From: an uncultured Selenomonadaceae bacterium
GTDB lineage: Bacteria > Bacillota > Negativicutes > Selenomonadales > Selenomonadaceae
Assembly (NCBI GenBank): GCA_905234505.1
Contig: CAJOIA010000005.1
Location: 1-53,326 of the forward strand
Direction of reading: 5' to 3'
Length of the DNA: 53,326 bases
How positions within the stretch are numbered: position 1 is the first letter of the stretch; every line of letters starts with the position of its first letter. A program made the position numbers and the translations under genes. This document shows, in pieces, positions 12,608 to 53,326 of the stretch. The notes under the pieces were generated by a model. It had not been told where the DNA came from. It searched no databases and saw only the letters and a list, made by a program, of their open reading frames with translations.

Positions 12608-12683
12608 TTAGGGATTAGTGGAAAGGGTATAGCGAATAGTGATTAAAAACTAGCCCCTTGCCCCTATTCCCTAGCCCCTAATC
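12608..12683. repeat. Heptad-periodic palindromic intercistronic element (G/C-rich variant)
   Basis: Sequence: ttaggga ttagtgg aaagggt atagcga atagtga, loop ttaaaaac, then tagcccc ttgcccc tattccc tagcccc taatc. It fills the flgB-flgC gap, and the flgB stop TAG (12678-12680) lies inside it. Confidence 0.8.
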
Positions 12684-13088
12684 AGCTTTGTCCGCCGCTG
12701 GTAAGCCGCTAAGTTGCGTGGCAAGCGCGTTGTAATAAATCTGATTTTTCGCCAGCGTCGCCATTTCAATATCAATATCAACGTTATTATCGTCTTTGCG
12801 CATCATTGTCGTATTGTCCAAAACAACGCTGGGCTCTGCGCGAGAAATGATAACTTTTGGCGGCAAATGTTTATCGTGAGTACGAAACATCTGCAATTTG
12901 CCTTCCGGCGCTTTTTCGCCATAAAGTTCTTTAGCTAATAACTCTTCAAATTCGACGTTGGATTTGCGGAAATTCGGCGTATTAACATTGGCGATATTAT
13001 TTGAAACAACTTCTTGGCGCATGCTCGCCGCCGTCAAACCGCGTGGCAGATAATTAAAATTCGACGAACTTAAAATCTGTTCCAGCAT
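12678..13088 (-). CDS. flgB: Flagellar basal-body rod protein FlgB
   Basis: Contains LTAASMRQEVVSNNIANVNTPNF. The start is taken at the ATG at 13088, after AGGTGA. Confidence 0.9.
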   Translation of the reverse strand: MLEQILSSSNFNYLPRGLTAASMRQEVVSNNIANVNTPNFRKSNVEFEELLAKELYGEKAPEGKLQMFRTHDKHLPPKVIISRAEPSVVLDNTTMMRKDDNNVDIDIEMATLAKNQIYYNALATQLSGLPAADKAD

Positions 13089-17521: not shown

Positions 17522-17534
17522 GGAGACAAGCTCT

Positions 17535-18640: not shown

Positions 18641-18727
18641 AAAATTCACCTCAAAAAATTTAATTGCAAATTGACAGAGTGCGATATTTTTATTAAAGTA
18701 GGAAAAAATTTTGCGGGGGGTGACGAC

Positions 18728-20634: not shown

Positions 20635-20639
20635 AAAAA

Positions 20640-20687
20640 GTGACATGTGACAAATTCACTTATCACATATCACCTATCACTTATCAC
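20640..20687. repeat. Heptad hairpin element, GTGA/TCAC subfamily
   Basis: Sequence: gtgacatgtgac, loop aaat, then tcactta tcacata tcaccta tcactta tcac. The stop TGA of the convergent gene at 20684 lies in the last unit. Confidence 0.7.
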
Positions 20688-20971
20688 TCAAAAACATTAT
20701 GCTTGACGCGCTCGTGTTCTTCGGATTGTTTTGCGTCATTCCAAGATTTTAAATCTCCGGTTAAATATCCTGTCACTCGGCGGATTCGCTCGAATTTTTC
20801 ACCTCGCGCTTCATAATTCACGTCAATTTTTCCGTCGTCGCACATTTTAACTTCAATGCTTTTCAGCGGAGTTTCAACGCGTTCACGTACATAATCAACG
20901 TAATTTTTCGCTTCTGCTTCTGTGAAATCGTCAAGTCCAATCGCCGTAACTTTTACGCCGTCAATTATCAT
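20684..20971 (-). CDS. Small protein resembling the C-terminal glycyl-radical segment of anaerobic ribonucleotide reductase NrdD
   Basis: The C-terminus ERIRRVTGYLTGDLKSWNDAKQSEEHERVKH resembles the NrdD RVxGYLG...N.GK..E...RVKH tail. The ATG at 20971 lies 5 nt after the mscS stop. Confidence 0.5.
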   Translation of the reverse strand: MIIDGVKVTAIGLDDFTEAEAKNYVDYVRERVETPLKSIEVKMCDDGKIDVNYEARGEKFERIRRVTGYLTGDLKSWNDAKQSEEHERVKHNVFE

Positions 20972-22714: not shown

Positions 22715-22721
22715 CTTTATA

Positions 22722-22896
22722 TCGGCATTTCTTTCTTTTTGTAAAAATAAAGAAACGCCTGCGCGGTTTGCGAAAGCAAAGCGTGCTCTTTAGTACAAAG
22801 AAAGAAAAACGAATTTTAATTGCTCCCGCGAGATCAGACAAGAGTGATAATTTTCAATCCTTGAAAATGGCGCGGGAAGCGCGCGTCCTGCGCGCT
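22722..22896 (+). repeat. Mosaic structured intergenic repeat, copy C
   Basis: The first 38 nt are identical to copy A. It carries a private insert, tgcgcggtttgcgaaagcaaagcgtgctctttagta. The attgctcccgcgagatcagacaagag block is identical to copy A. Its terminal hairpin is agcgcgc-gtcct-gcgcgct. Confidence 0.85.
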
Positions 22897-22943
22897 TCAT
22901 TTATGTATAATGTTTAAATTAAAATTATGTCTAATGTTTAAAC

Positions 22944-22985
22944 TAAAAAAATCCGCCCCCATTTCGGAACGGATCTTTTTTTATA
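22944..22985. terminator. Bidirectional terminator-like hairpin 3' of the flavodoxin gene
   Basis: AAAAAAA-atccg...cggat-cTTTTTTT. The stem is short, but it is flanked by A and T runs. Confidence 0.4.
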
Positions 22986-33558: not shown

Positions 33559-33584
33559 TTGACTGGAGGACTTTTTTACAATGA

Positions 33585-34310: not shown

Positions 34311-34328
34311 TTTTTAGGATGTGATTAA

Positions 34329-35436: not shown

Positions 35437-35449
35437 AGGAGTTTTATTG

Positions 35450-39338: not shown

Positions 39339-40275
39339 ACTGCGGGACTTTGAGGAAACGCGCTCGATATTAGGAGAACGCGACGAATTTTTACAGGTGC
39401 TTGATGAAAAATTTAATTGCAAGATTGTCAGTCGTGGCAATGCGATTGAACTTTATGGCGATGAATCAGAAGTTGAACGCGTCGCGCAGGTGATTGACGA
39501 AATTAAAATTCTGCACCGCAACGGAAGCATTATCACGATGAATGATTTGACGGCAGCGATTAAAATTATCAAATCTAATCGCGCAGGAGATTTGCACAAG
39601 ATTTTTGGCGAAACTGTGATTGTGACGGCGAATGGCAAACACATTCACGCAAAGAGCGTCGGACAACAAAATTATCTTGACACGCTGAAAAGCCACGTGA
39701 TAACTTTTGGAATTGGACCGGCGGGCACAGGTAAAACTTTTCTGGCTGTGGCGATGGCGGCGTATTATCTGCGACTGCGCGAGGTTAAGAAAATTATTTT
39801 GACGCGACCGGCGGTAGAGGCAGGCGAGCGGCTCGGATTTTTGCCTGGCGATATGCAAGAGAAAGTCGACCCATATTTGCGCCCATTGTATGACGCTCTG
39901 CAGGATATTTGGGGCTATGATATGTACCAGAAATTTTTTTCGCGCGGGATAATTGAAATTGCGCCGCTTGCCTATATGCGCGGGCGAACTTTGAGCGACG
40001 CTTTTATAATTTTGGACGAAGCGCAAAATACAACTAGCCGCCAAATGAAAATGTTTTTGACGCGGCTTGGTTTTGGTTCGCGAATGGCAGTTACCGGCGA
40101 TTTGAGCCAAATTGATTTACCGCGCGGCGTTAATTCTGGTTTGGCGGAGGCGGTGAAAATTCTCGCGCCGATTAATGGAATTGGTATTTGCGAATTGACT
40201 TCCACTGATGTTGTGCGTCACGATGTTGTTTCAAAAATTGTTGAGGCTTGGGAAAAATATGAACACGATAATTAA
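39319..40275 (+). CDS. phoH: PhoH-family ATPase
   Basis: Walker A motif GPAGTGKTFLAVAMA and a PhoH core. The start (TTG at 39319) is uncertain. Confidence 0.9.
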   Translation: MTTKKIELRDFEETRSILGERDEFLQVLDEKFNCKIVSRGNAIELYGDESEVERVAQVIDEIKILHRNGSIITMNDLTAAIKIIKSNRAGDLHKIFGETVIVTANGKHIHAKSVGQQNYLDTLKSHVITFGIGPAGTGKTFLAVAMAAYYLRLREVKKIILTRPAVEAGERLGFLPGDMQEKVDPYLRPLYDALQDIWGYDMYQKFFSRGIIEIAPLAYMRGRTLSDAFIILDEAQNTTSRQMKMFLTRLGFGSRMAVTGDLSQIDLPRGVNSGLAEAVKILAPINGIGICELTSTDVVRHDVVSKIVEAWEKYEHDN

Positions 40276-40711
40276 TTCTGAAGTTGCAGTTGACGAAAAA
40301 ATCACGGCTGAAATTCTGCGCGCGGCTGAAGTTATCGGTAAAATTTATGGCGTAGAAAATGCGGAACTCAGCATAACTTTGACTGATGATAAAAATATTC
40401 ACGCGCTGAATAAAAAATATCGAGGCATTGACCGCCCAACTGATGTTTTGTCGTTTGCATTTCGAGAAAGTGACGAGCCGGAAATTATCGGCGGCGAAAC
40501 TGAAATGCTTGGAGATATTATTATTTCGATTGAGCGGGCTAAAATTCAAGCGGCGGATTTTGGGCATAGTTTCCTGCGCGAAATTATTTTTTTGGAAGTG
40601 CACGGGCTATTGCATTTACTTGGTTACGATCACATTGAAGAGGCTGACCGGCTCGAAATGGAAGCTGAGCAAGATTTTATTATGGCTGAATTGAAAATTG
40701 GGAGGGACTGA
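40259..40711 (+). CDS. ybeY: rRNA maturation endoribonuclease YbeY
   Basis: Contains the HGLLHLLGYDH zinc motif. The start is taken at the ATG at 40259. Confidence 0.9.
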   Translation: MNTIINSEVAVDEKITAEILRAAEVIGKIYGVENAELSITLTDDKNIHALNKKYRGIDRPTDVLSFAFRESDEPEIIGGETEMLGDIIISIERAKIQAADFGHSFLREIIFLEVHGLLHLLGYDHIEEADRLEMEAEQDFIMAELKIGRD

Positions 40712-40714
40712 ACT

Positions 40715-41671
40715 TTGAAATCTGGATTTATCGCGGTTATCGGGCGTCCGAACGTGGGAAAGTCGACGTTGATTAATAAGATCATTGGGCAGAAAATAGC
40801 GATTATGTCAGACAAGCCGCAAACTACGCGCAGTCGCATTCAATGCATTTTGACTCAGGACGACGCGCAATTTATTTTTTTAGATACGCCTGGCATTCAC
40901 AAGCCGAAATTCAAACTAGGCGAATATATGTTGAAGGCGGCGGAAAGCACATTGCAGGAAGTTGACGTTATTTTTTTCGTTATCGATGCGACTGCCAGCT
41001 TAGGGAATAGTGGCAAGGGTATAGGGAATAGTAAAACCACTAATCCCTCTTCACTAGTCCCTAACCCCTTAATAGGCGGAGGCGAAAAATATATTCTTGA
41101 GCGGCTAAATTCTACTACGCAACCGGTTATTTTGGTTATTAATAAAATTGATTTACTGAATCGCGCAGAACTTTTACCGATAATTGCGGCTTATTCGGAG
41201 CGTTACAATTTCGCGGCGACTGTTCCAATTAGCGCGATTGAAGGCAGTAATGTTGACGAACTTTTGATTGAGGCTAAAAAATTTTTGCCCGAAGGTCCGA
41301 AATATTATCCAGCCGATATGGTCACCGACCAGCCCGAGCGTTTGATTATCTCTGAAATTATTCGCGAGAAAATTTTGCACGTGACCGAAGATGAGGTGCC
41401 TCATTCGGTGGCGGTTGATATTGAAGAAATTACTTCGCGCAGAAAAGATTTGACGTACATTCGCGCGACAATTTATGTTGAGCGAGATTCTCAAAAAGGT
41501 ATTCTAATTGGCAAAAATGGCGGACTTTTGAAAGGCGTTGGTCAAAATGCGCGTCCAGAAATTGAAATGCTTTTAGGCACAAAAGTTTTTCTGGATTTAT
41601 GGATTAAAGTCAAACGCGATTGGCGAAATTCTGTCGGCGCGCTTCAAAGTTTTGGGCTAGGCGAAAATTAG
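40715..41671 (+). CDS. era: GTPase Era (carries a 26-residue repeat-encoded insertion)
   Basis: G1 motif GRPNVGKST, G3 DTPG, G4 NKID and a KH domain are all present. TTG start follows GGGAGGGA. Confidence 0.95.
   Translation: MKSGFIAVIGRPNVGKSTLINKIIGQKIAIMSDKPQTTRSRIQCILTQDDAQFIFLDTPGIHKPKFKLGEYMLKAAESTLQEVDVIFFVIDATASLGNSGKGIGNSKTTNPSSLVPNPLIGGGEKYILERLNSTTQPVILVINKIDLLNRAELLPIIAAYSERYNFAATVPISAIEGSNVDELLIEAKKFLPEGPKYYPADMVTDQPERLIISEIIREKILHVTEDEVPHSVAVDIEEITSRRKDLTYIRATIYVERDSQKGILIGKNGGLLKGVGQNARPEIEMLLGTKVFLDLWIKVKRDWRNSVGALQSFGLGEN
41000..41076 (+). repeat. Heptad-periodic palindromic element inserted in frame in era
   Basis: Sequence: ttaggga atagtgg caagggt ataggga atagt, loop aaaac, then cactaat ccctctt cactagt ccctaac cccttaatagg. 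The first 33 nt differ at only 3 positions from the intergenic copy at 12608. Confidence 0.8.
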
Positions 41672-41684
41672 GTCGTGATTTATC

Positions 41685-42278
41685 TTGAATAAAAATGAAA
41701 CTTTTGCCAGTCGCATCTCCAAACAATTTTTGAATGGGCTGATTGTCGTTGTGCCGCCCGTCATTACCGCGTTTATTGTAATGTGGATTTTGAGCATAAC
41801 CGAAGGCAAGCTTGGGAAGTTTATTGAACAGTATCTGCAAATTAAATTTCCTGGCGTCGGACTTATCACGATTATAATTTTTATTTGGCTGGTCGGACTT
41901 GTCACCGGCAACATTTTCGCGAAAAAAATTATTCGTTTCCTTGAGTGGCTGCTTGAACAAATTCCGGTCGTCAAATTTATCTATGGCTCAGTCAAGCAAT
42001 TTTCTCGGGCGGTTCTGGATTATAAATCGTCTTTCAAGCACGTGGTACTTGTTCCCTATCACCAAGATTGGACAATTGGCTTTCTTATGAATAATATTCC
42101 TTCGGCGGTGCGTGAAAAAATCGGCGTAGATTATGTTTGCGTATTCATTCCGTGGAGCTTGAATATGACAAGCGGCACAAATCTTTTCGTTAAGCGCCAG
42201 GATATTATTTTTGTGAATATGACGCCGGAAGATGCTTTGCAATTTATATTAACCGCCGGCACTGTTGCTAAAAAATGA
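41685..42278 (+). CDS. DUF502-family membrane protein
   Basis: 197 aa with two TM segments and the IPVVKFIYGSVKQF motif. The TTG start is uncertain. Confidence 0.65.
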   Translation: MNKNETFASRISKQFLNGLIVVVPPVITAFIVMWILSITEGKLGKFIEQYLQIKFPGVGLITIIIFIWLVGLVTGNIFAKKIIRFLEWLLEQIPVVKFIYGSVKQFSRAVLDYKSSFKHVVLVPYHQDWTIGFLMNNIPSAVREKIGVDYVCVFIPWSLNMTSGTNLFVKRQDIIFVNMTPEDALQFILTAGTVAKK

Positions 42279-43039
42279 GCGAAAAATTTATTTTGCAGAA
42301 AACAATTGATGCGTCGCTTTTAAATCGCGGCTTAAATATTCCTGCGGCGGCTAAAATTTTTCTGGCTGAAAATCTTAGCGGCGGTGCGTTGATCCACGGC
42401 GAAAAGCGCGCTATAAAAATTATTTTTGAAGGCGAAACTCACGAGGCAATTTTGATTAGCATAAATTTCAATCGTCAAAAATACCCCAATCATCAAGATA
42501 TTTGGCAGATTGTTTACGGGAAAAATTCTCCGCTCGCCGCGAATATCCGAAAAATTTTTTTGTTGCCGAATGAGCAAAATTATCTCATCCTGTATTCGAC
42601 GGGCATTAAAGACATTTTTTATTTTGAGCCGATTTTTACAGGCGAAATCCCAAATCTCGCTGCTGAACAGACTGTAGAGAATCTTTTAGACGTGCAAAGT
42701 TTGACTGACCCTGAAGCTGCGCTTATTGAAAAATATCATTTGACGAAAATTCGTAAGCTCAATCGGAGTATCGGCGATTACTTAAAAAATTTGTATCAAT
42801 TTCGATGTCAAATCTGCGGGCAAAATTTTGGAGAAAGTTACGGACTGAAAATTGCCGAGTGCCATCACATAAATTATTTTGTTCAAAGTTTGAATAACGA
42901 CGCCGCAAATTTGCTGATTGTTTGCCCGAATCATCACAGAATTATTCACGCCGCCAATCCGATTTTCGACGCGGAGAAAAAAATTTATCGATATTCCAAT
43001 GGCTATGAAGAAAAATTAAAGCTGAATTTGCATTTATAG
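42275..43039 (+). CDS. HNH endonuclease (McrA/COG3183-like) with an unassigned N-terminal domain
   Basis: Contains CQICG...ECHHINYF...NLLIVCPNHHRIIH. The start overlaps the DUF502 stop (ATGA). Confidence 0.8.
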   Translation: MSEKFILQKTIDASLLNRGLNIPAAAKIFLAENLSGGALIHGEKRAIKIIFEGETHEAILISINFNRQKYPNHQDIWQIVYGKNSPLAANIRKIFLLPNEQNYLILYSTGIKDIFYFEPIFTGEIPNLAAEQTVENLLDVQSLTDPEAALIEKYHLTKIRKLNRSIGDYLKNLYQFRCQICGQNFGESYGLKIAECHHINYFVQSLNNDAANLLIVCPNHHRIIHAANPIFDAEKKIYRYSNGYEEKLKLNLHL

Positions 43040-43049
43040 AGGTAGACTA

Positions 43050-43781
43050 ATGGAAACTTTTAAAATTGAGGGCGTGATATTGCGCACGACAGATTTTGGT
43101 GATGCTAATCGCGTGGTTACAATTTACGCAAAAGATTTTGGCAAGCTTGAACTGAATGCTTATGGCTGCCGACGCGCGAAAAGTTCAATGTCCGGCGCGT
43201 TGCAGATTTTTAATCGCATTACCGCCGAGGTTAGTCACGGAGCGAAAGTTTCGACGATACGCGAGGCGGATGTTGTAAATTTTTACAGTAACTTAACAGC
43301 TGACATTGAGCGGCTAAGTTATGCGGCAATTTTTTTTGAGATTGTTAATCGAATGACTTTGCCAAAATTTCCTGAGCCTGAACTTTACAATTTGCTGATA
43401 AAATCTTTGCCCGCGCTGAATAATCTTGACGCGAGAATTGCGGCGCTGATTGGCGTTTGTCAATTTATGGAAATGACCGGATTTCAACTGAATTATTTTG
43501 AATGCGTTCACTGCGGCGCGAAAATTACTGGTGACGCAAAAATAAATTTGAAGACCGGCGGCGCAATGTGTATGAATTGTTTTGTTGACGAAAGTTTAAA
43601 TTATCCTAAAAATGTGCGATTGGCATTTGCTGAAATGTTAAAGCATGATTGGCGCGGCGAATTGAAATTAAATCAGCAACAAATAAATTCGGCGGAAGAA
43701 ATTTTGTGGCGGCAAGTGCGCGGAATTCTCGGCAAAGAATTAAATTCGATAAAATTTATAAAACAAATGCAAAAAAATTAG
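43050..43781 (+). CDS. recO: DNA repair protein RecO
   Basis: 243 aa with an OB-fold N-terminus and a CxxC...CxxC zinc motif (CVHCGAK...CMNC). Confidence 0.9.
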   Translation: METFKIEGVILRTTDFGDANRVVTIYAKDFGKLELNAYGCRRAKSSMSGALQIFNRITAEVSHGAKVSTIREADVVNFYSNLTADIERLSYAAIFFEIVNRMTLPKFPEPELYNLLIKSLPALNNLDARIAALIGVCQFMEMTGFQLNYFECVHCGAKITGDAKINLKTGGAMCMNCFVDESLNYPKNVRLAFAEMLKHDWRGELKLNQQQINSAEEILWRQVRGILGKELNSIKFIKQMQKN

Positions 43782-43813
43782 GGAAGCGGCGAATCACCTC
43801 TTCCCATTTTTTA
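43781..43813. terminator. Bidirectional intrinsic terminator between recO and ftsZ
   Basis: gggaag-N13-cttccc, with T-runs on both strands. Confidence 0.7.
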
Positions 43814-43827
43814 TTGACTGTATTAAA

Positions 43828-45087
43828 TTATCTGCGGTTCATCCACTCGGGTATATCGATTGAGCCGTCCTTGCCTTTTTTTAAATTAGTAGGCTCGGAA
43901 ACCGGCGGCGTGACCGTTTGCGGAGGAGGCGGTGGCGGTGGCGTTTGAGTTTTGCTTCTGGTGAAATCAAAAACCGGAAATGAAGTATTTCTTGTATGTT
44001 GAGTTACTTGCGGCGGCGAAAATGACGATTGAAAAGTTTGATGCTGATTTGACAGGAAAGACGCCGGTCTTACAATTTCCGATTCGCCTTGAAAACGCGT
44101 GGCAATAATCGTTACTCGCACGGTATCGCCCAAAGTTTCATCAATGGACATTCCCCACATAATTTCTGCTTCAGAATCAGCCGCCTCTTGAATTGTAGTA
44201 GACGCTTCGTTAACTTCCAGCATTGTCAGCATATCATTTGCGCCCATAATATTCATTAAAACGCTGTGAGCGCCTTGAATACTTGTCTCAAGGAGTGGCG
44301 ACTCAATAGCTAATCTAGCCGCGTTAATAGGTGCTTTATCGCCGGTAGCTTCGCCAATTCCAATAAGAGCCGCGCCGGAATTGCTCATAATTGTGTTAAT
44401 ATCGGCGAAATCCAAATTAACTAAGCCTGGCATTGTGATTAAGTAAGAAATACCTTGCACACTCTGCCGCAAAATATCATCAGCAATACTAAACGCCTTC
44501 ATAACTGGCGTTTTTTTATCAACGACGGTAAGCAGTCTGTCATTTGGAATAGTGATAATTGTATCAACATTGCGCTTAAGGTTTTCAATTCCAATATCGG
44601 CATTTTTCTTACGTCGCGGACCTTCAAAATTAAATGGGCGAGTGACAACTCCGACAGTCAAGGCGCCAATTTCGCGAGCAATGGACGCTATAACCGGCGC
44701 CGCGCCAGTACCTGTACCGCCGCCCATCCCTGCCGTTATGAAGACCATGTCCGCGCCATCCAATGCTTTTTGAATGTCATCGCGGCTTTCTTGCGCGGCT
44801 TTTTCGCCAACTTCGGGACGCGCGCCCGCTCCAAGTCCCTTAGTCAATTTCTCGCCAATTCTCATACGTTTGGGCGCTATTGAATTTAGCAAAGCTTGAG
44901 CATCGGTATTAATAGCGATAAATTCCACTCCCTCAAGCCCGAGTGAAATCATTCTATTGACAGCATTTGAGCCGCCGCCGCCTACCCCAATTACTTTGAT
45001 TTTTGCCAGCTGATCTAAACTGGTCTCTTCTGGTTCCCACACATGCATTTCCCCCACATCATTATTTATTTTCGAGATTTTTAACAA
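43828..45087 (-). CDS. ftsZ: Cell division GTPase FtsZ
   Basis: Contains [13 protein letters not shown] and [10 protein letters not shown], a proline-rich linker and a conserved C-terminal peptide. Confidence 0.95.
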
Positions 45088-45158
45088 ATTTAAAGTAAGT
45101 ATACTCGTAACATTTTACTATAAAAAAATAATTTTTGCTATAGCAACTAAAAAAAGTT

Positions 45159-45485
45159 TCAACCACAGTAATTTTTCAGTAAACGTTCTTTCAGTGCTGA
45201 GAGATTTTTAAAAATGCGCAGCCCCAAAACCAGTAGCGTTATGTAATACAGTTCGATTTCAAAAATATTTCCGATAAAAATTAATATCAATCCGAACACG
45301 CTATTTATTAAAAAGCCAGTGATTAATACCGCGTCACTGAATCTTGATTCAAATTTCGCGCAGAAACCGCCCAATATGGAATCAAGCGCCGCCATTAATA
45401 TTACTGCGAAAATTTTTGTATCAGCTGAAATATTCGACGGGTAGCCAAAAATTATTCCGACCACTAAACCGATTAACGCTTTCAT
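45159..45485 (-). CDS. Small basic membrane protein (DUF1290/Sbp-like)
   Basis: 108 aa with 3-4 TM segments. Sits between the DUF881 gene and ftsZ, as in Firmicute dcw clusters. Confidence 0.65.
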   Translation of the reverse strand: MKALIGLVVGIIFGYPSNISADTKIFAVILMAALDSILGGFCAKFESRFSDAVLITGFLINSVFGLILIFIGNIFEIELYYITLLVLGLRIFKNLSALKERLLKNYCG

Positions 45486-46075
45486 TTTTTAATAACAACC
45501 TTTGCAAAGACGTGGTGAAATGAGCCATCATAAGGTGGAATATAAATTTCGTCTGAAGTTGCAATTTCAAGCTGAATGCCCCAAACGCTTAGCGTATCTT
45601 TGACGCCGCCGCGCATTTTCAAGGAATTTTCCAGCGTCTTTTTGTCGCCAATTGCGCTAATTTCATATGGCGGAGCAGAGCGAACATTATTAACAGACAA
45701 AGTCGGACCGGCGCAGCGAATTTCACTGGTGGCGGTTAATCTTTGACCGTTGATTGAAATAGCTTCCGCACCCGCCGCTTTAAGCTCATTTATCACGCGC
45801 AAAATATCTTCGTCGTGGATCACATACAAATTTGGATTTTCGCCAATACTGACTGCGCGAGTGCTATCGTCCATTTTAACAATTACGCCTTGACCTTCGA
45901 GCGGCAACAGGCACGCTTTCAATTTCAAATCGGTTATAATTTTTTTCGTCGCGGCGTAGTCATTTTCTTCATTTGTATCTTTCTGCCGAAATTCTATTGA
46001 CAAAATAAAACCGACAATTACGCACACGAAAGTTATTGACCAACCTTCGCCGAAAATTCGCCGGAGTTTTTCCAT
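45482..46075 (-). CDS. DUF881-family division-associated protein
   Basis: N-terminal TM segment plus a DUF881-like domain. ATG at 46075 follows GAGGT. Confidence 0.7.
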   Translation of the reverse strand: MEKLRRIFGEGWSITFVCVIVGFILSIEFRQKDTNEENDYAATKKIITDLKLKACLLPLEGQGVIVKMDDSTRAVSIGENPNLYVIHDEDILRVINELKAAGAEAISINGQRLTATSEIRCAGPTLSVNNVRSAPPYEISAIGDKKTLENSLKMRGGVKDTLSVWGIQLEIATSDEIYIPPYDGSFHHVFAKVVIKK

Positions 46076-46079
46076 AAGT

Positions 46080-46817
46080 TTACCTCGCAATTTTTATATA
46101 TGGCGCAGTATAGCTAAAATCAGCGTATTCAACATTATTTGGGTTTTTATCCAAGTCGCGCAGAAAATTTTCTATCAAATGAACTTTTTCGTCAAGGCGC
46201 TCAAAATCTCCAATGCGAATTTGAACAGGATATTCAGTTGCCGTGTATGCAACAATGTAATCTTCCTTGATTATCGCCACTTCAGAAAGTTTATTCAGCG
46301 ACGCCGTGTTAAATTTATCCAGCAGATCTAAAATCTTTTTAACTAGTTCGTCGTCAACATCATCGCCAATATATTTATCCTGCACGCTTGCGCCGGTTAT
46401 CATCGGTATTTTCATTTCGCGCAGATTTTTATAGCTGTCGATAATTTTTCCGTTTTTGTCAAGGTCAAGATAGCCGTAATCACAGACAATAGTAGCAAGC
46501 GCCCGCCGCTCCTTAATTTTAATTTCAAGCGCATTTGGCACAATCCGTCGCACGGTGGCTTCTTCAATTCGCAAATCTTTTAACAGGCGACCTGTAACTG
46601 CGTCGGTTTCCAGCTGAAAGAGCGGCTCGCCAATATAGATATTGCCAATCTTTAAAACATCTTCGACAGTCAGCCTTTCCGCGCCGATTAATTTTATATG
46701 CGTCAAAGTAAAAATCGGCACGTAAACTAAAAAGCCGAGAATTACGCCGCATATTGCCAGAAAAACAAAGCCTTTGAAAAGCCGCCGTCCACTGCGCCGC
46801 CGTTTAACTTTAGCCAT
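46080..46817 (-). CDS. ftsQ: Cell division protein FtsQ/DivIB
   Basis: Basic N-terminus, one TM segment, and POTRA plus FtsQ domains. Confidence 0.8.
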   Translation of the reverse strand: MAKVKRRRSGRRLFKGFVFLAICGVILGFLVYVPIFTLTHIKLIGAERLTVEDVLKIGNIYIGEPLFQLETDAVTGRLLKDLRIEEATVRRIVPNALEIKIKERRALATIVCDYGYLDLDKNGKIIDSYKNLREMKIPMITGASVQDKYIGDDVDDELVKKILDLLDKFNTASLNKLSEVAIIKEDYIVAYTATEYPVQIRIGDFERLDEKVHLIENFLRDLDKNPNNVEYADFSYTAPYIKIAR

Positions 46818-46836
46818 TAAAAAACCTCCGGTTTTT

Positions 46837-46910
46837 TTAGTGATTAGTGATTAGGGGTTAGTGGCTAGTGATTTTTTTCTAGTCACTATTCACTATTCAC
46901 TATTCACTAA
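46837..46910. repeat. Heptad-periodic palindromic intercistronic element (archetype)
   Basis: Sequence: ttagtga ttagtga ttagggg ttagtgg ctagtga, loop tttttttc, then tagtcac tattcac tattcac tattcac taa. It lies between the murC-ddl stop (46913) and the ftsQ RBS. Confidence 0.85.
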
Positions 46911-46912
46911 AA

Positions 46913-49216
46913 TCAAAAGCCCGCCAGCGTCAAAATCTTTTCGCAAAGCTCCGGAAATTCAATGCCCGCCGCCCGCGCTGCATCTGGTACAAGAGAGGTT
47001 TCTGTCATTCCTGGCACTGAATTTATTTCAATAACGTAAGGAATATTTTCCGCCGACAACATCATATCCACACGAGCCACGCCTGCGCATTTGCAAATTT
47101 TAAACGCACTAATCGCCAATGCTTGAACTTTTTCGGTCAATTCATCGGAAATTTCAGCGGGACAAATATGAGTTGACGCGCCTTTTTTATACTTAGTTTC
47201 GTAATCGTAGCGTCCGGTCGTCGTGGTAATTTCAATAATCGGCAACGCCTTAGCTTTGTCTTCATTGCCGAAAACCGCTACCGTCAATTCTCGCCCGCTG
47301 ATAAATTCTTCAACTAAAATTTCGTCGCCGTACTTAAAACTATTTTCAATCGCCGCCTGAATATCCTCAGCATTTTCAACAATTTCAACGCCTATGCTCG
47401 AGCCCTGCGAAGGCGCTTTGATAACCACCGGCAAACCAAATTTTTCTTCAATAGTTTTAGCCAAATTTTTATCTTTGTCAACTGCGCGAAAAACTGCAAA
47501 TTTCGGCGTAGCAATTCCGGCAGAAGTTAAAACGCGCTTTGTCATAGTTTTATCCATAGTCAAAGCGGCGGCAAGCACATTTGAGCCGGTATAGGGAATT
47601 TTCAACATATCAAGCGTTCCTTGAAGTTGCCCATCTTCGCCGTAGAAACCATGAACTGCATTGAAAACGATACCGCAATTTGAAAGTTTAATGTCAGCCG
47701 CGAAAGTTTGAGGCTTCAATTCAAGCGGCTCGGCGTTATAATTTTTTGAAAGGAGCGCGTCCAAAATCGCCTTGCCAGTTCTGCGCGAAACTTCAGCTTC
47801 AGTGGAAGAGCCGCCCATTACCACGACAATTTTACAATTCTGCCGCTGCTTTTTCAAAAGTTCAATGAGTTCATCGGCAGTTTTATAAATATCGCCCGCA
47901 CCCATTGTTATAACTAAATCGCCAGGCGTCACATTGTCAAGCAGATACTCAGCAATTTTTTCGCGGTCGGGAATGTACGAAACCGCTTGATTAGTTGTCG
48001 CTAAAACTTGCTCTAAAATAGATTCGCCGCTAATTCCAGCAATTTTATCTTCACCAGCAGAATAAATATCAGTAAGCACAAGTAAATCAGCACCGGCAAA
48101 CGCTCCGCCAAATTCATTGAGCAAAAGTTGCGTGCGAGTGTACCTGTGCGGCTGAAATACGCAAATAATTCTTCGCGGATTAGTTTCACGCGCCGCCTTC
48201 AATGTTGCCGCAATTTCAGTCGGGTGATGTCCATAATCATCAACAATCCAAATATTTCTGACGTTGCCCTTAGTTTGAAAACGCCGCTTGGCTCCGTGAA
48301 ATTTGCTCAAACCATCGGCAATCTTCGCAAAATCAACGCCAATATTCATAGCCGTTGCAATAGTCGCCAGTGCGTTTAAAACGTTGTGCCGCCCGTGTAT
48401 TGCCAGTTGAACCCTGCCCAAAATCTTATCGCCGTGAATAACGTCAAAGCTAACGCCTTCAATGCTCGCCTGAATGTTTTTAGCAGTAAAATCGGCGTCA
48501 TTGTCAATCGCGTAGGAAATTATTTTTCGGTCAATTGTCGCAGCCATTTCGCGCAGATTTTCATTGTCAAAACAAAGCACAGCAACGCCGCTTTCAGGAT
48601 TAATATTCTCAATGAAAATTTTAAAAGCCTCGCGGATTCGCTGAACCGTGCCGTAATAATCCAGGTGATCGTCTTCAACATTCGTGACAACTGCAATAGA
48701 AGGCTTGAGCTTTATAAATGAGCCGTCGCTTTCGTCAGCTTCAGAAACAAGATAATCGCCTTTGCCCAAAATCGCACCTGTGCCTAAATCAACCGATTCG
48801 CCGCCAATTATAATTGTGGGGTCAACGCCCGCATTAAAAAGCACAAAGCCAATCATTGAGGTGGTTGTAGTTTTGCCATGCGCGCCAGCAACCGCGATAC
48901 CTTTTTTGGAATTCAAAAGCATAGCGTTAATATCGGAGCGGTGCAGTCTTGGAATTTTTAATTCAGCCGCTCTTAAAATTTCCGGATTATCATTATGAAT
49001 TGCTGAAGAACAAACAATCGCTTCAACGTCACCAATATTCGCGCAGTCGTGACCAATAAAAATTTTCGCGCCAAGATTTTTCAGCATTTGCACAGTTGCA
49101 GAATCAGCGCAGTCAGAGCCGGTAACTTCATAGCCGGATTCAATTAAAATTTTCGCAAGCGCACTCATACCCGCGCCGCCAATACCAACAAAGTGAAATT
49201 TTTTCAAATTCATCAT
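46913..49216 (-). CDS. murC-ddl: Fused UDP-N-acetylmuramate--L-alanine ligase / D-alanine--D-alanine ligase
   Basis: The N-terminal half is MurC (FHFVGIGGAGMSALA, GAHGKTTT). The C-terminal half is Ddl (KIVVVMGGSSTEAEVS...EINSVPGMTETSL). It is a single uninterrupted ORF. The start is taken at the ATG at 49216. Confidence 0.9.
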   Translation of the reverse strand: MMNLKKFHFVGIGGAGMSALAKILIESGYEVTGSDCADSATVQMLKNLGAKIFIGHDCANIGDVEAIVCSSAIHNDNPEILRAAELKIPRLHRSDINAMLLNSKKGIAVAGAHGKTTTTSMIGFVLFNAGVDPTIIIGGESVDLGTGAILGKGDYLVSEADESDGSFIKLKPSIAVVTNVEDDHLDYYGTVQRIREAFKIFIENINPESGVAVLCFDNENLREMAATIDRKIISYAIDNDADFTAKNIQASIEGVSFDVIHGDKILGRVQLAIHGRHNVLNALATIATAMNIGVDFAKIADGLSKFHGAKRRFQTKGNVRNIWIVDDYGHHPTEIAATLKAARETNPRRIICVFQPHRYTRTQLLLNEFGGAFAGADLLVLTDIYSAGEDKIAGISGESILEQVLATTNQAVSYIPDREKIAEYLLDNVTPGDLVITMGAGDIYKTADELIELLKKQRQNCKIVVVMGGSSTEAEVSRRTGKAILDALLSKNYNAEPLELKPQTFAADIKLSNCGIVFNAVHGFYGEDGQLQGTLDMLKIPYTGSNVLAAALTMDKTMTKRVLTSAGIATPKFAVFRAVDKDKNLAKTIEEKFGLPVVIKAPSQGSSIGVEIVENAEDIQAAIENSFKYGDEILVEEFISGRELTVAVFGNEDKAKALPIIEITTTTGRYDYETKYKKGASTHICPAEISDELTEKVQALAISAFKICKCAGVARVDMMLSAENIPYVIEINSVPGMTETSLVPDAARAAGIEFPELCEKILTLAGF

Positions 49217-49246
49217 ATCGCTAAACCTCAAAATATTTTCCTCCTT

Positions 49247-49296
49247 GTTATGTGATAATTGATATGTGCTTTTCACATATCACATTTCACTTTCAC
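49247..49296. repeat. Heptad hairpin element, GTGA/TCAC subfamily
   Basis: Sequence: gttatgtgataattgatatgtg, loop ctttt, then cacatatcacatttcactttcac. The lptF/G stop TGA (49293-49295) lies in the first unit on the transcribed strand. Confidence 0.7.
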
Positions 49297-50387
49297 CGCG
49301 AAGCCCGACGAATTAATATTGCTCCGAAAATCAGTCCAATTACATTTGGTATCCACACAGCATAAAACGGCGGTACAATCCCGCCGCGCGCCAATGCATT
49401 TGATAAAGTCATTACCGCATAATAAATAAAAATTATTATGACGCTGAACGCAAAACCCATTGAGGAAGAATTTCTCGTTGGTTGCAAACCAAGCGGAACG
49501 CCAATTAGCGCGAAAATCAAACTCGCCATTGGCACAGTTATTCGCTGATAAAGTTCAGTTTCCAACTTCGCCGTGTTGACGTATTGCGTCTTCATAATTT
49601 CAATTTGCGCTTGCAGTTCCTTCATTGTCAATTCTTCGGGGCGCTTCTGCTCACGAACAATTTGACGCGGGCTTGCTTTAACTGGCAAAACTTGAGTTGA
49701 AAAACGCATTGTCCGCGTTCTGTCGGCGTCCGAAATATCATAAATCGTGCCGTCGTGCATAATCCAAACGTCATCTTTCCATTCGGCGTAAGTTGCATTT
49801 TCAACGTGCGTAAGTCTGCCTTCGTCATCAAATTCTTGCATCGTCACTCCGGTTAAAGTTTCATTGCCCGCGTTAAATTCCCGCGCATAAACTAACCGCT
49901 GCAGTTTGTCACTTTGAATTTCTTTGACGATAATATGTTCCTGTGATTTAAGCTCGGTGTTGCCTTGAATTTCAAAATAAACTACGTTGTTATAAGAGGT
50001 ATTTGCCCAAGGGACAACGTGCTCATTAAATAAAATCGCGCAGATACTTACAATAAGCCCTAAAAAAATTGCAGGCGCGGCGATTCTTCCGAAACTTATC
50101 CCGCAAGATTTCATTGCAGTAATTTCGCTAGAACTCGACAGTCGCCCGAAAGTTAAAAGCGTTGCCAACAACATTGACATTGGAAAAGTCCACATTATTA
50201 TTGACGGCAAACCATACACGAAAATTTTTAGGACAGACGAAATTGACGCGCCATAATCGGTAATGTACTTTGCGATTCTGAATAAAGTTCCCGAGCCGAT
50301 AAATACCGCCGAAAATGCGCAAATTCCAAATATCGCCGCCATTACAACTTCGCGAAAAATATATAAATCTAAAATTCTGATGCGCAA
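49293..50387 (-). CDS. LPS export ABC permease, LptF/LptG (YjgP/YjgQ) family
   Basis: 364 aa with six TM segments and a periplasmic beta-jellyroll insert. Only one family member is present in this operon. Confidence 0.85.
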   Translation of the reverse strand: MRIRILDLYIFREVVMAAIFGICAFSAVFIGSGTLFRIAKYITDYGASISSVLKIFVYGLPSIIMWTFPMSMLLATLLTFGRLSSSSEITAMKSCGISFGRIAAPAIFLGLIVSICAILFNEHVVPWANTSYNNVVYFEIQGNTELKSQEHIIVKEIQSDKLQRLVYAREFNAGNETLTGVTMQEFDDEGRLTHVENATYAEWKDDVWIMHDGTIYDISDADRTRTMRFSTQVLPVKASPRQIVREQKRPEELTMKELQAQIEIMKTQYVNTAKLETELYQRITVPMASLIFALIGVPLGLQPTRNSSSMGFAFSVIIIFIYYAVMTLSNALARGGIVPPFYAVWIPNVIGLIFGAILIRRASR

Positions 50388-50418
50388 TAAAAGCCGCTCC
50401 CTATCAGAAAATTATTTT

Positions 50419-50628
50419 TTACCTGTCGAAAATCAAAACCGCCGATTTCAAAAAACAATTTTCAATGGTTTTGCTGTCAAGTTTAATATGGTCAACTGGC
50501 GAAACTGCCGAAGTCGAATAAGAAATATTTTTAAGTTTCAAGCCAGCCTCTGAATTTTCGTCAATGGCTTGCTGAATTTTTCTTTCAAGTTTTTCGTCAT
50601 TAAACGCGCTGCAAACTCTAACTTTCAT
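50419..50628 (-). CDS. Small Cse60-like protein
   Basis: 69 aa with a strong RBS (AGGGGGA). MKVRV...EKLERKIQQAIDE...ENCFLKSAVLIFDR resembles the Bacillus Cse60 pattern, by recollection only. Confidence 0.4.
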   Translation of the reverse strand: MKVRVCSAFNDEKLERKIQQAIDENSEAGLKLKNISYSTSAVSPVDHIKLDSKTIENCFLKSAVLIFDR

Positions 50629-50640
50629 AAAATTTCCCCC

Positions 50641-51360
50641 TTAAAGTTTAAAATTATCGCCAAGATAAAATTTTTTGGCAACAGGACTATCGGCAATTTC
50701 ATTCGCGCTGCCCTCAAGCAAAATTCTGCCCGCGTTCAAAATATACGCGCGGTCAACAATATTCAGCGTTTCGCGGACGTTATGGTCAGTTATCAAAATT
50801 CCCATTCCACGCTCGCGCAGATATTTAATAATCGTCTGAATATCAGCAACCGCCAGTGGGTCAACGCCAGCAAAAGGCTCGTCAAGTAAAATAAATTGCG
50901 GCTCTAATGCAAGACACCGCGCAATTTCTACGCGCCGCCGCTCGCCGCCCGAAAGTTCAGTACCCTTGCGCTCACGCACATGCATAATATTAAATTCTTT
51001 CAGCAAACCTTCAAGCCGCTGTTTTGCCGTGTCGCGCGAAATATCCAAAGTCTCCAATATCGCCATAATATTTTGCTCCACAGTCAGCTTGCGAAAAATT
51101 GACGCTTCTTGTGTAAGATAGCTTATGCCGAGTTCTGCGCGACGATACATGGGCAAATGAGAAATATTCACGTCCGACACAAAAACTTCGCCGGAATCAG
51201 GATGCTCTAAACCAACAATCATATAAAAAGAAGTGGTTTTGCCCGCGCCATTCGGACCGAGCAAGCCGACAATCTCACCTTTCTCAACGCGCAACGAAAC
51301 ATTATTGACAACCACGCGCTTTTTGAAAGCCTTAACTAAATTTCTAGCTTCGATATTCAT
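50641..51360 (-). CDS. lptB: LPS export ABC transporter ATPase LptB
   Basis: Contains [25 protein letters not shown] and [13 protein letters not shown]. The start is taken at MNIEARNL; the alternative is 51381. Confidence 0.9.
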
Positions 51361-51361
51361 A

Positions 51362-52258
51362 TCATTTTTTAAACGGCTCATTAGTCAAAAGTTCATGTGG
51401 CAGAGCTTGATTTTTCGGCGCAGTCATAGGCGCAGGATTATTTTTATCGTCAGTCAAATAAACAGTTAAGCGGTTGCCGCGCATAGTATTATTTTGCTGA
51501 ACTGCCCAAGCATTGCCGGTTAAAACAGCCTTGCCGTTTTCAGTAGCGTAATAATCAATGCGGTCGCCGCCAGCTTCCAATTCGCGCGGAGGATTCACAA
51601 TATGCACATTGCCAATACCAATATAATATTCGTCGTCAATCCAGCCTTCCATTTGGTCAGCAGTAAATTTGCCGTCGTTGTTGGTGAATAAGCCGCCGCC
51701 TGGAACTATGACATGCTTTTTTTCTTCGGGGTAATAATCAACGTGGTCGCCGGTGAAAGTTCGAGTATCGCCGCGCGGATTTCTTGCATCTGGCGGAACG
51801 GTTTGCACGCCGCGCACATTTCCATCAGCCTGCATATGCCCGCGCCCGTCATTACTCAAAGCGTCGCAGGTAATTCGTAAATCGCCGCGATTAACAATGA
51901 CATCACCAGTAAGATAAGCCTCTTGCGTATTTGTATTGTACGTAGCGCGCCCGCCGGTTGCTCTGTCAGCGCCGTATTTTAGCAAAACATTTCCGGTAGC
52001 CGTGACAACGCCGGTTTTCATATCGTAATCGACAGTATCAGCGTTGACTTCGGAAGGTATATCAGCGGCGGCGTTTTGCTGTTGCACGGAATGTTTGACT
52101 TCTACTTTGCCGGTTGCCTGCAAAATTTCAGTGTCCATGTCGTAATCAATTTCTTCAGCTTTGAGTTCGGAAAGTGAATCTTCTTTGCCCGCTGATAATG
52201 CCGTCGAACTTATTAAAAACGTCGCGCAGGTTGCCGCTAATAATTTTTTCCAATTCAT
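51362..52258 (-). CDS. lptA: OstA/LptA-family periplasmic protein (long, multi-repeat)
   Basis: Signal peptide plus repeated OstA-like beta-jellyroll segments. ATG at 52258 follows GGAGGG. Confidence 0.65.
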
Positions 52259-52259: not shown

Positions 52260-52820
52260 TTATTCGCCCTCCGAATCTTTGACGCCCTTAACAATTCGAG
52301 CGTTGCCTTTCAATTTAAAGTGCCTTAAGCCGTTCCAAGCCTCTGCAGTATTGCCGTAAGCCCGCATATCGTCTTTGAAAATTTTAACATCGCCCGTTGC
52401 AATTAAAATCTGGTCGGCACCAACAAAATCAAGTTCATTGCCGGTAAGTTTTGCGCCTTCGCTGTCAGTAACGACAACCTCGCCTTCAACGTGAATATCG
52501 CCGCTTTGATGATTGTAATTGCCTTTCTTTGCCGTTAGCTGAAAAAATCTGCCGCTCGGCTGATAAAATTTGCCGTCGAGATTTTCAAAAGTTGCATTTT
52601 GAGTTTCCACGTCGATAATCATTTTGCCTGCACTGAGCTCATAAAGTTTAACGCCGTTTTGTTCCTCGATAATTGTATTGCCTTCATATTCCATAATTTT
52701 GGGCGGCTCAATTTTTGTAATAGGCGGCGGCTCATCGGGCGTATTCATTACAACCCAAATCACAAGCCCGACGAACAGCACGCCGATTATTCCAAGTAGT
52801 ATTTTAACTTTGCTGTCCAT
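52260..52820 (-). CDS. lptC: LptC-like membrane-anchored protein
   Basis: N-terminal TM segment plus an OstA-like fold, upstream of lptA-lptB. ATG at 52820 follows AGGAGA. Confidence 0.6.
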   Translation of the reverse strand: MDSKVKILLGIIGVLFVGLVIWVVMNTPDEPPPITKIEPPKIMEYEGNTIIEEQNGVKLYELSAGKMIIDVETQNATFENLDGKFYQPSGRFFQLTAKKGNYNHQSGDIHVEGEVVVTDSEGAKLTGNELDFVGADQILIATGDVKIFKDDMRAYGNTAEAWNGLRHFKLKGNARIVKGVKDSEGE

Positions 52821-52832
52821 CCTATCTCCTTG

Positions 52833-52898
52833 TTTAGTGGTTAGTGATTGGTGGTTAGTGGTTGGTGTAAAAATCACTACCCACTATTCACTATTCAC
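52833..52898. repeat. Heptad-periodic palindromic intercistronic element
   Basis: Sequence: tttagtgg ttagtga ttggtgg ttagtgg ttggtg, loop taaaaa, then tcactac ccactat tcactat tcac. It contains the TAG stop (52891-52893) of the upstream acyltransferase gene. Confidence 0.8.
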
Positions 52899-53326
52899 TT
52901 TTCCCTCTCTTGACTTTGCGCATTTCGGGCGGCGTATTCCAGCGCTTTTGAAACCACAGCCACTGAGTAGGATTTTCGCGAATAACCTGCTCCAAAATCC
53001 GCGTCATTTTTTCGGTAAATCTGAACAAATCGCCGTCCGCGTCGCCGGTATCTTCAAAGTGCATAACTTCAAAAATTTTAACCAAGTGCCGCCCGTTCGG
53101 CTGACGAATTATAAACGCGGGCAAAACCGGCGAATTGAATTTTTTGGAAAAGACAGCCGGTCCCATTGGTGTTGACGCAATTTTACCAAGAAAATTTATA
53201 AATGCGCCGCCTGGTCCGCCATCTTGATCTGCAAGGAAACCTAAAATTTTGCCCTTCTTCAAAGCCCGTCCTGCTGATAATAATTCGCTCGTGCCGCGAT
53301 TGAATATTTCTACGTGAATTGTCGCC
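52891..53326 (-). CDS. Lipid A biosynthesis (LpxL/HtrB-like) acyltransferase, C-terminal part; 5' end lies beyond the window
   Basis: The ORF is open to the window edge. It contains FLADQDGGPGGAFINFLGKIASTPMGPAVFSKKF...NPTQWLWFQKRW, typical of the lauroyl/myristoyl acyltransferase family. Confidence 0.7.
   Translation of the reverse strand, partial: ATIHVEIFNRGTSELLSAGRALKKGKILGFLADQDGGPGGAFINFLGKIASTPMGPAVFSKKFNSPVLPAFIIRQPNGRHLVKIFEVMHFEDTGDADGDLFRFTEKMTRILEQVIRENPTQWLWFQKRWNTPPEMRKVKRGKSE

Follow-up and report, generated by a model that had tools for sequence, protein, structure and literature searches.

Heptad-periodic fold-back hairpins between genes, and once within era, in a rumen Selenomonadaceae contig

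Six hairpins and their placement

The window analyzed here is a whole stretch of 53,326 nt, contig CAJOIA010000005.1 of an uncultured rumen Selenomonadaceae bacterium, and it holds six copies (A to F, Table 1) of a hairpin element built of 7-nt units, or heptads. The gene set suggests a diderm Firmicute, with lptA/B/C/FG, a lipid A acyltransferase gene and a flagellar rod and hook cluster; DUF881-sbp-ftsZ, a fused murC-ddl and phoH-ybeY-era-recO are present as well. At all six loci a purine-rich array of 7-nt units is followed by a short A/T loop and then by the complementary (mirrored) array, giving elements of 50-85 nt with arms of 3-5 units. Six copies in 53 kb correspond to about one per 9 kb, and five of the six are intergenic. 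No covariance-model match was obtained when the whole window was compared with Rfam at gathering thresholds, and a search of the window for tRNA and tmRNA genes found none.

Tandem Repeats Finder reported period-7 arrays of 4.3-5.3 copies at 12650, 20656, 41001, 46837, 46879, 52834 and 52874, representing five of the loci. In a lag-autocorrelation scan over periods 4-12, a cutoff of 16/21 matches returned six period-7 regions, all within the reported loci, and 0-1 regions for each of the other periods; at 14/21 the 49263 array and the 41044 arm were added, plus one borderline region at 7425-7452. The pattern GTGR-N3, taken four times in succession, matched five times in the window compared with 0.00 matches expected from 100 shuffles of it. 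When each copy was folded alongside 200 shuffles, all six were predicted to form long imperfect hairpins with a mismatch at about every seventh position, with z-scores of -3 to -10 and 0-1 of the 200 shuffles as stable as the real copy. The family of heptad-periodic hairpins that an initial annotation of this DNA had read at these six places is thus borne out by the arrays themselves, by the specificity of period 7 and by folds that surpass those of shuffled sequences.

The copies are related beyond shared composition, as that annotation had also supposed. The left arms of copies B (12608-12640) and D (41000-41032) are 91% identical (30/33 nt) and present five variant units in identical order, while 46879-46908 of copy A and 52877-52906 of copy F are 87% identical over 30 nt. 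Over 48 units the heptad consensus is WWAGKGR, in which G4 (44/48) and G6 (42/48) are near-invariant. Copy A, whose palindrome runs on through a T-run (46832-38) and A-runs (46909-19), has folding energies of -37.4 kcal/mol on the plus strand and -27.7 kcal/mol on the minus strand (z about -10); the corresponding values are -32.6 kcal/mol for the plus strand of copy F and -20.1 kcal/mol for the minus strand of copy C. In copies A and F the antisense strand folds more stably than the sense strand, and the G.U strand asymmetry, used as a test of selection on the mRNA, gave mixed signs over six data points.

The intergenic copies abut or overlap the stop codon of the gene reading into them and take up the intervening space as far as the next ribosome-binding site (RBS). 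Four of them (A, B, E and F) occupy co-directional gaps on the minus strand and one (C) a convergent gap, whereas none of the six divergent gaps in the window holds a copy. The stop codon lies inside the outermost heptad in copies B (flgB TAG, 12678-80), C (TGA of the minus-strand gene, 20684-86), E (lptFG TGA, 49293-95) and F (TAG, 52891-93), and 2 nt outside the element in copy A (murC-ddl TGA, 46913-15). The next Shine-Dalgarno sequence is found 2-13 nt past the element, for instance 7 nt off for ftsQ (GGAGG, 46825-29), 2 nt off for murC-ddl (GGAGG, 49240-44) and 3 nt off for lptC (52826-29). Read on the minus strand (the sense strand for A, B, E and F), all five intergenic copies close all three frames within 22 nt. 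A U-run precedes the hairpin in copies A, B, E and F, and an A-run or RBS comes behind it; since a T7 run (20632-38) follows the hairpin of copy C on the minus strand, this is the only copy with terminator-like anatomy. The flanking genes, which include a match to Lip_A_acyltrans (Pfam) upstream of copy F and a match to the NrdD C-terminal region in the 98-aa open reading frame (ORF) beside copy C, share no common functional theme. Two ORF starts (46913..49276 and 52260..52877) were over-called into hairpins; the true start of murC-ddl is TTG at 49233, giving a 772-aa product.

These positions agree in part with the initial annotation, which had described copies that fill intercistronic gaps, each intergenic one inside an operon, beginning at the upstream stop codon, ending before the next RBS and carrying stops in all frames of both strands. 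The relation to stop codon and RBS stands, and is closer than that annotation had stated. An operonic setting applies to copies A, B, E and F but not to copy C (20640-20687 in that annotation), which lies between convergent genes, and the location of 41000-41076 within a coding sequence had been overlooked. Stops in all six frames are found in the 46837 and 12608 copies but not in the other four: the 20640, 49247 and 52833 copies have three closed minus-strand frames and one open plus-strand frame, and copy D is open in a single plus-strand frame, which is the coding frame (frame 0) of era.

In Era, copy D replaces EKF with ASLGNSGKGIGNSKTTNPSSLVPNPLI, a peptide of 27 residues, for a net gain of 72 nt (24 aa) according to protein and DNA alignments. 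The window Era has 318 aa. Among its best 120 homologues, one is equal in length (P0001, 99% identical), 118 have 288-301 aa and one has 447 aa, and the 24 extra residues are absent from the other 119; the named homologues are all from "Selenomonadaceae bacterium" metagenome-assembled genomes (MAGs), and the matching assemblies are rumen metagenomes. DNA alignment with three contigs of a sister species (L001-L003) showed the site to be empty there. The insert divides the match to Era structures in the PDB between beta4 and alpha3 of the GTPase domain, and Era residues 97-120 have a predicted local distance difference test (pLDDT) score below 50 in AlphaFold2, so that the insert is predicted to be a disordered loop. 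Codon differences between the era genes of the window and of the related contig L004 comprise 29 synonymous and 4 conservative nonsynonymous changes, so that the insert-bearing gene is under purifying selection. Copy D itself sits in a 360-nt tract identical to L004, and the unit that would put TAG in frame reads AAG, a variant that it has in common with intergenic copy B. As the insert is predicted to be disordered and the essential GTPase around it is constrained, copy D needs no function.

Table 1. Positions and settings of the six heptad hairpins and of other features in the window.
Feature	Position	Strand and setting	Units or content
Copy A	46837..46910	fills murC-ddl/ftsQ gap, minus strand	TTAGTGA x5, T-rich loop, CTATTCA x4
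Copy B	12608..12684	fills flgB/flgC gap, minus strand, fliE next	TAGGGA/TAGTGG-type units
Copy C	20639..20689	between convergent cobS (+) and 98-aa ORF (-)	ATGTGAT/AAGTGAT-type units
Copy D	41000..41076	+; in frame within era (40715-41671)	
Copy E	49247..49297	fills lptFG/murC-ddl gap, minus strand	ATGTGAT-type units
Copy F	52833..52900	fills lipid A acyltransferase/lptC gap, minus strand	TTAGTGG/TTAGTGA x5, loop, CACTATT x3
murC-ddl fusion	46913-49233	-	~772 aa, Mur_ligase + Dala_Dala_lig
HNH-type protein gene	42275-43039	+; between DUF502 and recO	254 aa, weak HNH endonuclease domain
~190-nt repeat	8695-8900	+; intergenic	
~190-nt repeat	15715-15920	-; intergenic	
~190-nt repeat	22700-22905	-; intergenic	
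24-nt unit x2	22901-22948	adjoins third ~190-nt repeat copy	TTATGTATAATGTTTAAACTAAAA

Relatives, viral contigs and other phyla

We compared the window with related contigs, namely the sister-species contigs L001-L003 together with L004, L284-L286, L264-L267 and L173. Copies D, A and E are identical in L004, which is 96.7% identical to the window, and copy B is identical in L284 and L286 (98.8-100% identity). Because copies A, E and D lie in identical tracts, which for A and E exceed 1 kb, this strain comparison is uninformative on element conservation. The more distant relatives are more varied. In L001-L003 (85-90% identity) sites D and E are empty, with 14 nt at site E where the window has 55 nt, and site A holds a different heptad hairpin of the TGTGATA/AGTGATA type that folds strongly. 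A different, shorter hairpin of the TAGGA type occupies site B of L285, in flanks that are 93.8% identical. In L266, which is more distant and syntenic, the gaps at sites A and E measure just 22 and 20 nt and therefore hold no elements. These empty, filled and replaced sites indicate that elements are gained, lost and rebuilt at a few per cent (about 5-15%) divergence, and show that both their origin and their turnover take place in the DNA itself.

Presence/absence polymorphism among relatives, which the initial annotation had proposed to look for, is therefore real, since the era and lptFG/murC copies are absent from L001-L003. The same annotation had let the family stand or fall with further copies outside the window, and such copies exist: besides the variants at the same sites in L001-L003 and L285, unrelated heptad hairpins were found at L267:8804-8872 and twice within 8 kb of L173, and none in L264, L265 or L266. 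L001:3559-3592, between secA and prfB, is an array of C-rich heptads (CCTTTTC, CCTTACC, CCTCGCC, CCTTTCC) whose partner arm is short; the window, L002 and L004 instead have an FkbM-type methyltransferase gene at that position. The divergence between strains is itself mosaic. Against L004 (window 32756-51671), about 44-51.6 kb is identical and 33-43 kb differs by 3-4%, and L284, compared over 2146-20448, is 98.8% identical to 17521 and 86.9% identical from 17877, with different genes between; both alignments look like recombination tracts.

The hairpins of the window belong to a class of fixed polarity that extends across phyla. Among viral contigs, the pattern AGTGANNAGTGA-N5-35-TCACTNNTCACT retrieved 60 stretches with period 7 in the forward arrangement, compared with 4 stretches when the arms were swapped; with the same core, period 6 gave 4 stretches and period 8 gave 26, which shows a preference for period 7. 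Across the 60 forward stretches the G+C content ranges from 0.30 to 0.70 and the heptad register mostly extends past the pattern; several copies occur per contig in L054 and L057. A shuffled core, GATGA, yielded 49 forward and 12 reversed stretches, nine of the latter sharing one 55-nt span length and perhaps representing one sequence in related contigs. This control is not clean, as AGTGATG arrays contain GATGA. It also led to a second large family, of GGATGAA/TTCATCC hairpins with the purine arm first, in viral contigs L095-L143 of 58-70% G+C (e.g., L104:9929-9984). Hairpins of period 8 exist among the viral contigs as well (AGTGATTG, AGTGAATG).

In species-representative genomes, where the counts are lower bounds, we found 120 or more stretches, drawn from at least 12 phyla. 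Among the matches listed, Pyrinomonadaceae and other Acidobacteriota were the commonest; Chloroflexota, Planctomycetota, Verrucomicrobiota, Bacteroidota, several proteobacterial classes, Desulfobacterota, Firmicutes (including a Selenomonadaceae MAG), Vulcanimicrobiota, Armatimonadota, Poribacteria, Synergistia, Nitrospirales and Gastranaerophilales were also represented. The units vary across phyla (AGTGACG, AGTGATC, GGATGAA). Additional hairpins in the listed genome loci, which the pattern had not selected, were 8 forward and 0 reversed; the forward-to-reversed counts are 60:4, 8:0 and 6:0, with the TGA-bearing arm first. In the same listed loci, 10 of 125 hairpins (8%) fell within open frames of at least 100 codons, compared with 92% of random positions, and the distance from upstream stop to hairpin had a median of 2 nt (interquartile range -9 to +10). 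Co-directional, convergent and divergent gaps were used 79, 19 and 15 times, which is similar to the background of 435, 106 and 114. The intragenic share in the genome sample is about 2-8% of hairpins, and in the window about 1/6.

Hairpins of the Pyrinomonadaceae (loci L145-L254, e.g., L183:6127-6204) consist of AGTGATG/AGTGATA x4, a loop of 15-25 nt and a mirror x4. They have sharp ends, with a stop codon a few nt upstream and a 3′ arm that ends 5-10 nt before ATG, and no obvious Shine-Dalgarno sequence was seen between that arm and the ATG at these loci. Copies in frame also recur outside the window. The hairpin at L232:5160-5223 lies in a DEAD-box helicase of Candidatus Villigracilis, after the LFPTKALAQDQF motif, and those at L169:7501-7591 and 1801-1886 belong to a Caldilineaceae MAG; they lie in large ORFs in which VTSDKGS repeats are encoded by three heptads.

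Origin of the hairpins and competing explanations

We favor, with about even confidence, the view that the elements are lineage-specific heptanucleotide fold-back repeats, of the type known as short tandemly repeated repetitive (STRR) sequences or long simple sequence repeats (LSSRs), which are selfish or neutral and have side effects on mRNA resembling those of repetitive extragenic palindromic (REP) sequences. They can be copied to new places, and once were copied in frame into era; copy-and-paste is indicated by the 30/33 nt and the order of variant units that copies B and D share. Growth and change would proceed by replication slippage and fold-back template switching with occasional ectopic copying, for which no dedicated transposase would be needed. 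Persistence may be explained by translational inertness: the first arm met on either strand would stop all three frames within about 3 units, and the arm facing the next gene would be poor in G, a pyrimidine array that has neither ATG/GTG nor Shine-Dalgarno-like runs. With the polarity reversed, start-like, purine-rich units would instead lie directly ahead of the next start codon and the stops would come later. Alternatively, slippage may nucleate arrays at the stop codon, with fold-back (template-switch) synthesis then mirroring them, in which case the stop triplets of the units and their single polarity would both follow from the site of nucleation. Our analysis cannot separate these two sources of polarity. 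In a polycistronic mRNA, a long mismatched hairpin of 20-37 kcal/mol would stand directly after the stop codon and should act, in REP-like fashion, as a barrier to 3′-to-5′ exonucleases and a modulator of termination and re-initiation. We regard such an effect as a consequence rather than a cause, because close relatives do without several of the copies, one copy lies in coding sequence, and copies A and F fold more stably in antisense.

Several observations weigh against this view. Unit number is invariant between strains that are 96.7-100% identical, so the elements are not hypermutable on short time-scales, unlike slippage-prone simple sequence repeats (SSRs). The junctions between empty and filled sites are not clean, 9-14 nt being replaced at sites D and E. 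The ftsQ and flgC sites retain hairpin potential although their sequence has been replaced completely, which could reflect selection for structure. Finally, a polarity of about 15:1 and the sharp ends in Pyrinomonadaceae also fit a dedicated protein or a selected function. We put forward, tentatively, a broader proposal, that the window hairpins are the local face of an unrecognized cross-phylum polar class, 5′-(..RTGA..)n, loop, (..TCAY..)n-3′. Its members present the stop-bearing arm first on both strands; they may have originated by a common generating mechanism or through a hairpin-recognizing enzyme, or they may be selected, bidirectional, ribosome-proof intercistronic hairpins.

Selection could in particular have acted on cis-acting RNA hairpins that serve as intercistronic stabilizers, decay barriers or devices for translational coupling or insulation, setting cistron ratios in the flagellar, lpt and division operons. 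REP hairpins are known to stabilize upstream mRNA and, within about 15 nt of the stop codon, to reduce expression by ribosome stalling. In co-directional operons, four of the five intergenic copies occupy precisely the stretch that separates a stop codon from the following Shine-Dalgarno sequence, and as their sense-strand frames close within 22 nt, ribosomes would halt before melting most of the stem. The retained hairpin potential just mentioned, the class-wide polarity and stop-codon abutment across phyla, and the 3′ arms of Pyrinomonadaceae that end just before an ATG without an obvious Shine-Dalgarno sequence point the same way. Nevertheless, close relatives do without copies at era, lptFG/murC and (in L266) ftsQ, such a role would be senseless for the copy within a coding sequence, and the weaker sense-strand folds of copies A and F, the lack of a functional theme among flanking genes and the background-like use of gap types argue further against it, so that we consider this explanation rather unlikely. 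Distinctly less probable in our judgment are non-autonomous mobile elements of the miniature inverted-repeat transposable element (MITE), REPIN or fold-back-transposon kind, mobilized by an enzyme in trans that recognizes oriented heptads. They would account for the presence/absence polymorphisms, for the common order of variant units in copies B and D, for in-frame insertions recurring in other phyla (the helicase of L232 and the two ORFs of L169), for multiple copies on single viral contigs, for the sharp Pyrinomonadaceae ends and for a polarity fixed relative to the dyad, as multiple inward-facing binding sites would give. However, neither a target-site duplication nor a clean junction was found where empty and filled sites of copies D and E are compared, the copies differ in unit number and sequence rather than being near-identical, and no transposase domain, including that of the REP-associated tyrosine transposases (RAYTs), appeared among the window genes scanned with Pfam or in the Pfam tables of the syntenic loci that cover the rest. 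The exact 24-mer common to B and D had 0 matches in JGI metagenomes, a null with no bearing on how many copies the source species carries, that species being from ENA rumen assemblies. The turnover in place is better matched by SSR dynamics.

Protein recognition of the arrays, either by an oligomeric antiterminator of the HutP/TRAP type or by the DNA-bending integration host factor (IHF) or HU, is very unlikely. HutP binds two sets of three UAG triplets at 4-nt spacing, single-stranded and in a leader upstream of a terminator. The initial annotation had speculated on a HutP-like ring protein because UAG triplets lie 4 nt apart, as they do in copies A, B, D and F, and a regular 7-nt register with polarity relative to the dyad would suit an oligomer; sites for proteins have also been a matter of speculation for heptamer arrays in Geobacter (PMC2700814), Nostoc (10.1101/2022.06.06.494920) and Beggiatoaceae (PMC4679880). 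The speculation fails here on several counts. UAG is found in 26/48 units and in none of those of copies C (20640) and E (49247), the triplets are predicted to be base-paired within stable stems, the copies lie between cistrons rather than in leaders ahead of terminators, and one is translated. Units differ between copies and taxa, and the same architecture is built of different units across phyla, which makes a single conserved partner unlikely; no hutP or mtrB gene is present in the window, and for a DNA-bending protein the 7-bp period is out of phase with the helical repeat. Ordinary intrinsic terminators that are repetitive by chance are hardly credible. Copy C does lie between convergent genes, immediately past the stop of the minus-strand gene and ahead of a T7 on that strand, but copies A, B, E and F are within operons and have no U-tract after the hairpin, copy D is part of a coding sequence, the A/T-rich stems have a mismatch every 7 nt, and heptad period and polarity are foreign to terminators.

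Three further candidates were rejected. CRISPR arrays, which the initial annotation had already dismissed, lack support since there are no spacers and the arms are complementary; G-quadruplex repeats do not agree with the absence of G3+ runs from most copies; and an assembly artefact is contradicted by identical copies in the independent assemblies L004, L284 and L286.

Neighboring features and known systems

The window contains a second dispersed repeat, of about 190 nt and unrelated to the heptad hairpins, in three intergenic copies with segments that are 97-100% identical (Table 1). It comprises two GC-rich hairpins (GGCGCGC..GCGCGCC and CCGCGCC-ATTTTCAGGATTGAAAAT-GCGCGG) and a terminator-like TTTCTTTCTTT hairpin, had no match in Rfam even at E<=1, and could be a small RNA, a module of 3′ untranslated regions or a MITE. 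The 24-nt unit that adjoins its third copy has TATAAT -10-like motifs, which suggest duplicated promoter elements. The murC-ddl fusion next to copies A and E is kept in L001-L004 and L266. The gene for the 254-aa HNH-type protein downstream of era also occurs in L001-L004, and L266 lacks it at that place.

Among the long SSRs of bacteria, heptanucleotide repeats are the commonest, yet they have no accepted function or origin. The locus described here offers a compact, testable case: its hairpins are well defined and lie in essential operons (lpt, mur/fts, flagellar rod), and close relatives supply naturally occurring alleles that are empty, filled or replaced. Any model of origin is constrained by the polarity rule and by the abutment on stop codons, which also suggest a simple design principle for DNA that can lie between genes on either strand without being translated. 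The Era insertion is an example of how peptide loops can be added to proteins by DNA of this kind. In practical terms, the elements mislead gene callers, as in the two over-called starts of this window, and displace alignments of intergenic DNA; their use as markers of strains among rumen Selenomonadaceae is conceivable.

The elements resemble REP sequences and the mosaic elements (BIMEs) and REPINs formed from them in being intercistronic palindromes often just past stop codons, in forming hairpins in mRNA and in varying in presence between relatives. A REP is an imperfect palindrome of about 35 nt with a conserved GTAG head, is associated with a RAYT (a Y1 transposase), has no heptad period and, like BIMEs and REPINs, reaches high copy number. 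In the window the arms are periodic arrays, GTAG occurs only in the minus-strand arm of copy F (GGGTAGTGA) and no RAYT was seen among the window genes or in the tables of the syntenic loci, so the elements are not REPs or BIMEs, as the initial annotation had held; the absence of target-site duplications and of near-identical copies likewise excludes them from the MITEs. Rickettsia palindromic elements (RPEs) are 100-150 bp long, confined to Rickettsia, frequently intragenic and not heptad-periodic. Both kinds of palindrome are tolerated in frame as surface loops of essential genes, as in era or the helicase of L232, but there is no sequence relationship and the likeness may be regarded as a functional analogy only. 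Eukaryotic fold-back (FB) transposons have kilobase-scale arms and associated coding sequences; their inverted arms are also built of short tandem repeats, and there is no evidence of homology.

The closest relationship is to heptameric SSRs. Cyanobacterial STRR heptamers were reportedly described by Mazel in 1990. Heptamers form the most abundant class of long SSRs in bacteria and are ascribed to polymerase slippage in the account of Mrazek (2007) summarized in PMC4679880. Among named examples, TAACTGA of Beggiatoaceae, Cyanobacteria and Bacteroidetes lies mostly just upstream of start codons (PMC4679880), GGGAATC of Xanthomonas and GGGGAYT of Nostoc include some inverted pairs, heptamer arrays differ in length and sequence at the same sites of Xcc and Xac, and GTGATTA is mentioned for H. 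pylori (PMC4692102); in Nostoc, heptamer arrays are reported in a preprint to affect recF/recO expression, with no mechanism given (10.1101/2022.06.06.494920). The published arrays are numerous within a genome, as six copies in 53 kb and further ones on related contigs may suggest for the present family. Our elements agree with these in having tandem 7-nt units with a few to several copies per array, in being mainly intergenic and often abutting start or stop codons, in occurring as inverted pairs, in units that carry stops as TAACTGA-type units do, and in polymorphism of length and sequence at orthologous sites (A and B, with flanks 85-94% identical). They differ in that the arms are short and do not form G-quadruplexes, and in that all window copies are fold-backs of fixed polarity, whereas the published families are mostly one-stranded arrays. 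The unit WWAGKGR, found here in Negativicutes, belongs to no named family (CCCCAGT, TTGGTCA, CAACAGT, TAACTGA, GGGAATC), although it resembles GTGATTA of H. pylori.

A parallel in architecture is provided by Geobacter metallireducens, in which paired tandem octa-, nona- and heptanucleotide arrays, termed global regulator binding sites, lie on opposite strands, e.g., MTYCTGA x5 between proB and proA, and were interpreted by the authors as IHF/HU sites, with no test (PMC2700814). Opposite-strand arrays with a short variable spacer, in intergenic positions and within operons, characterize both systems, the paired-array form being found in all six of our copies, and G. sulfurreducens has a different element at the same proB-proA gap (PMC2700814), just as the sister species does at site A. 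The units are different, and polarity, relation to stop codons and in-frame insertions are not described in that paper. More generally, we found no description in the retrievable papers of a fixed polarity, of stop-codon abutment throughout the class, of its breadth across phyla and viral contigs or of the in-frame Era insertion. The elements of the window thus represent a new unit, in a new phylum, within a known but poorly understood kind of repeat.

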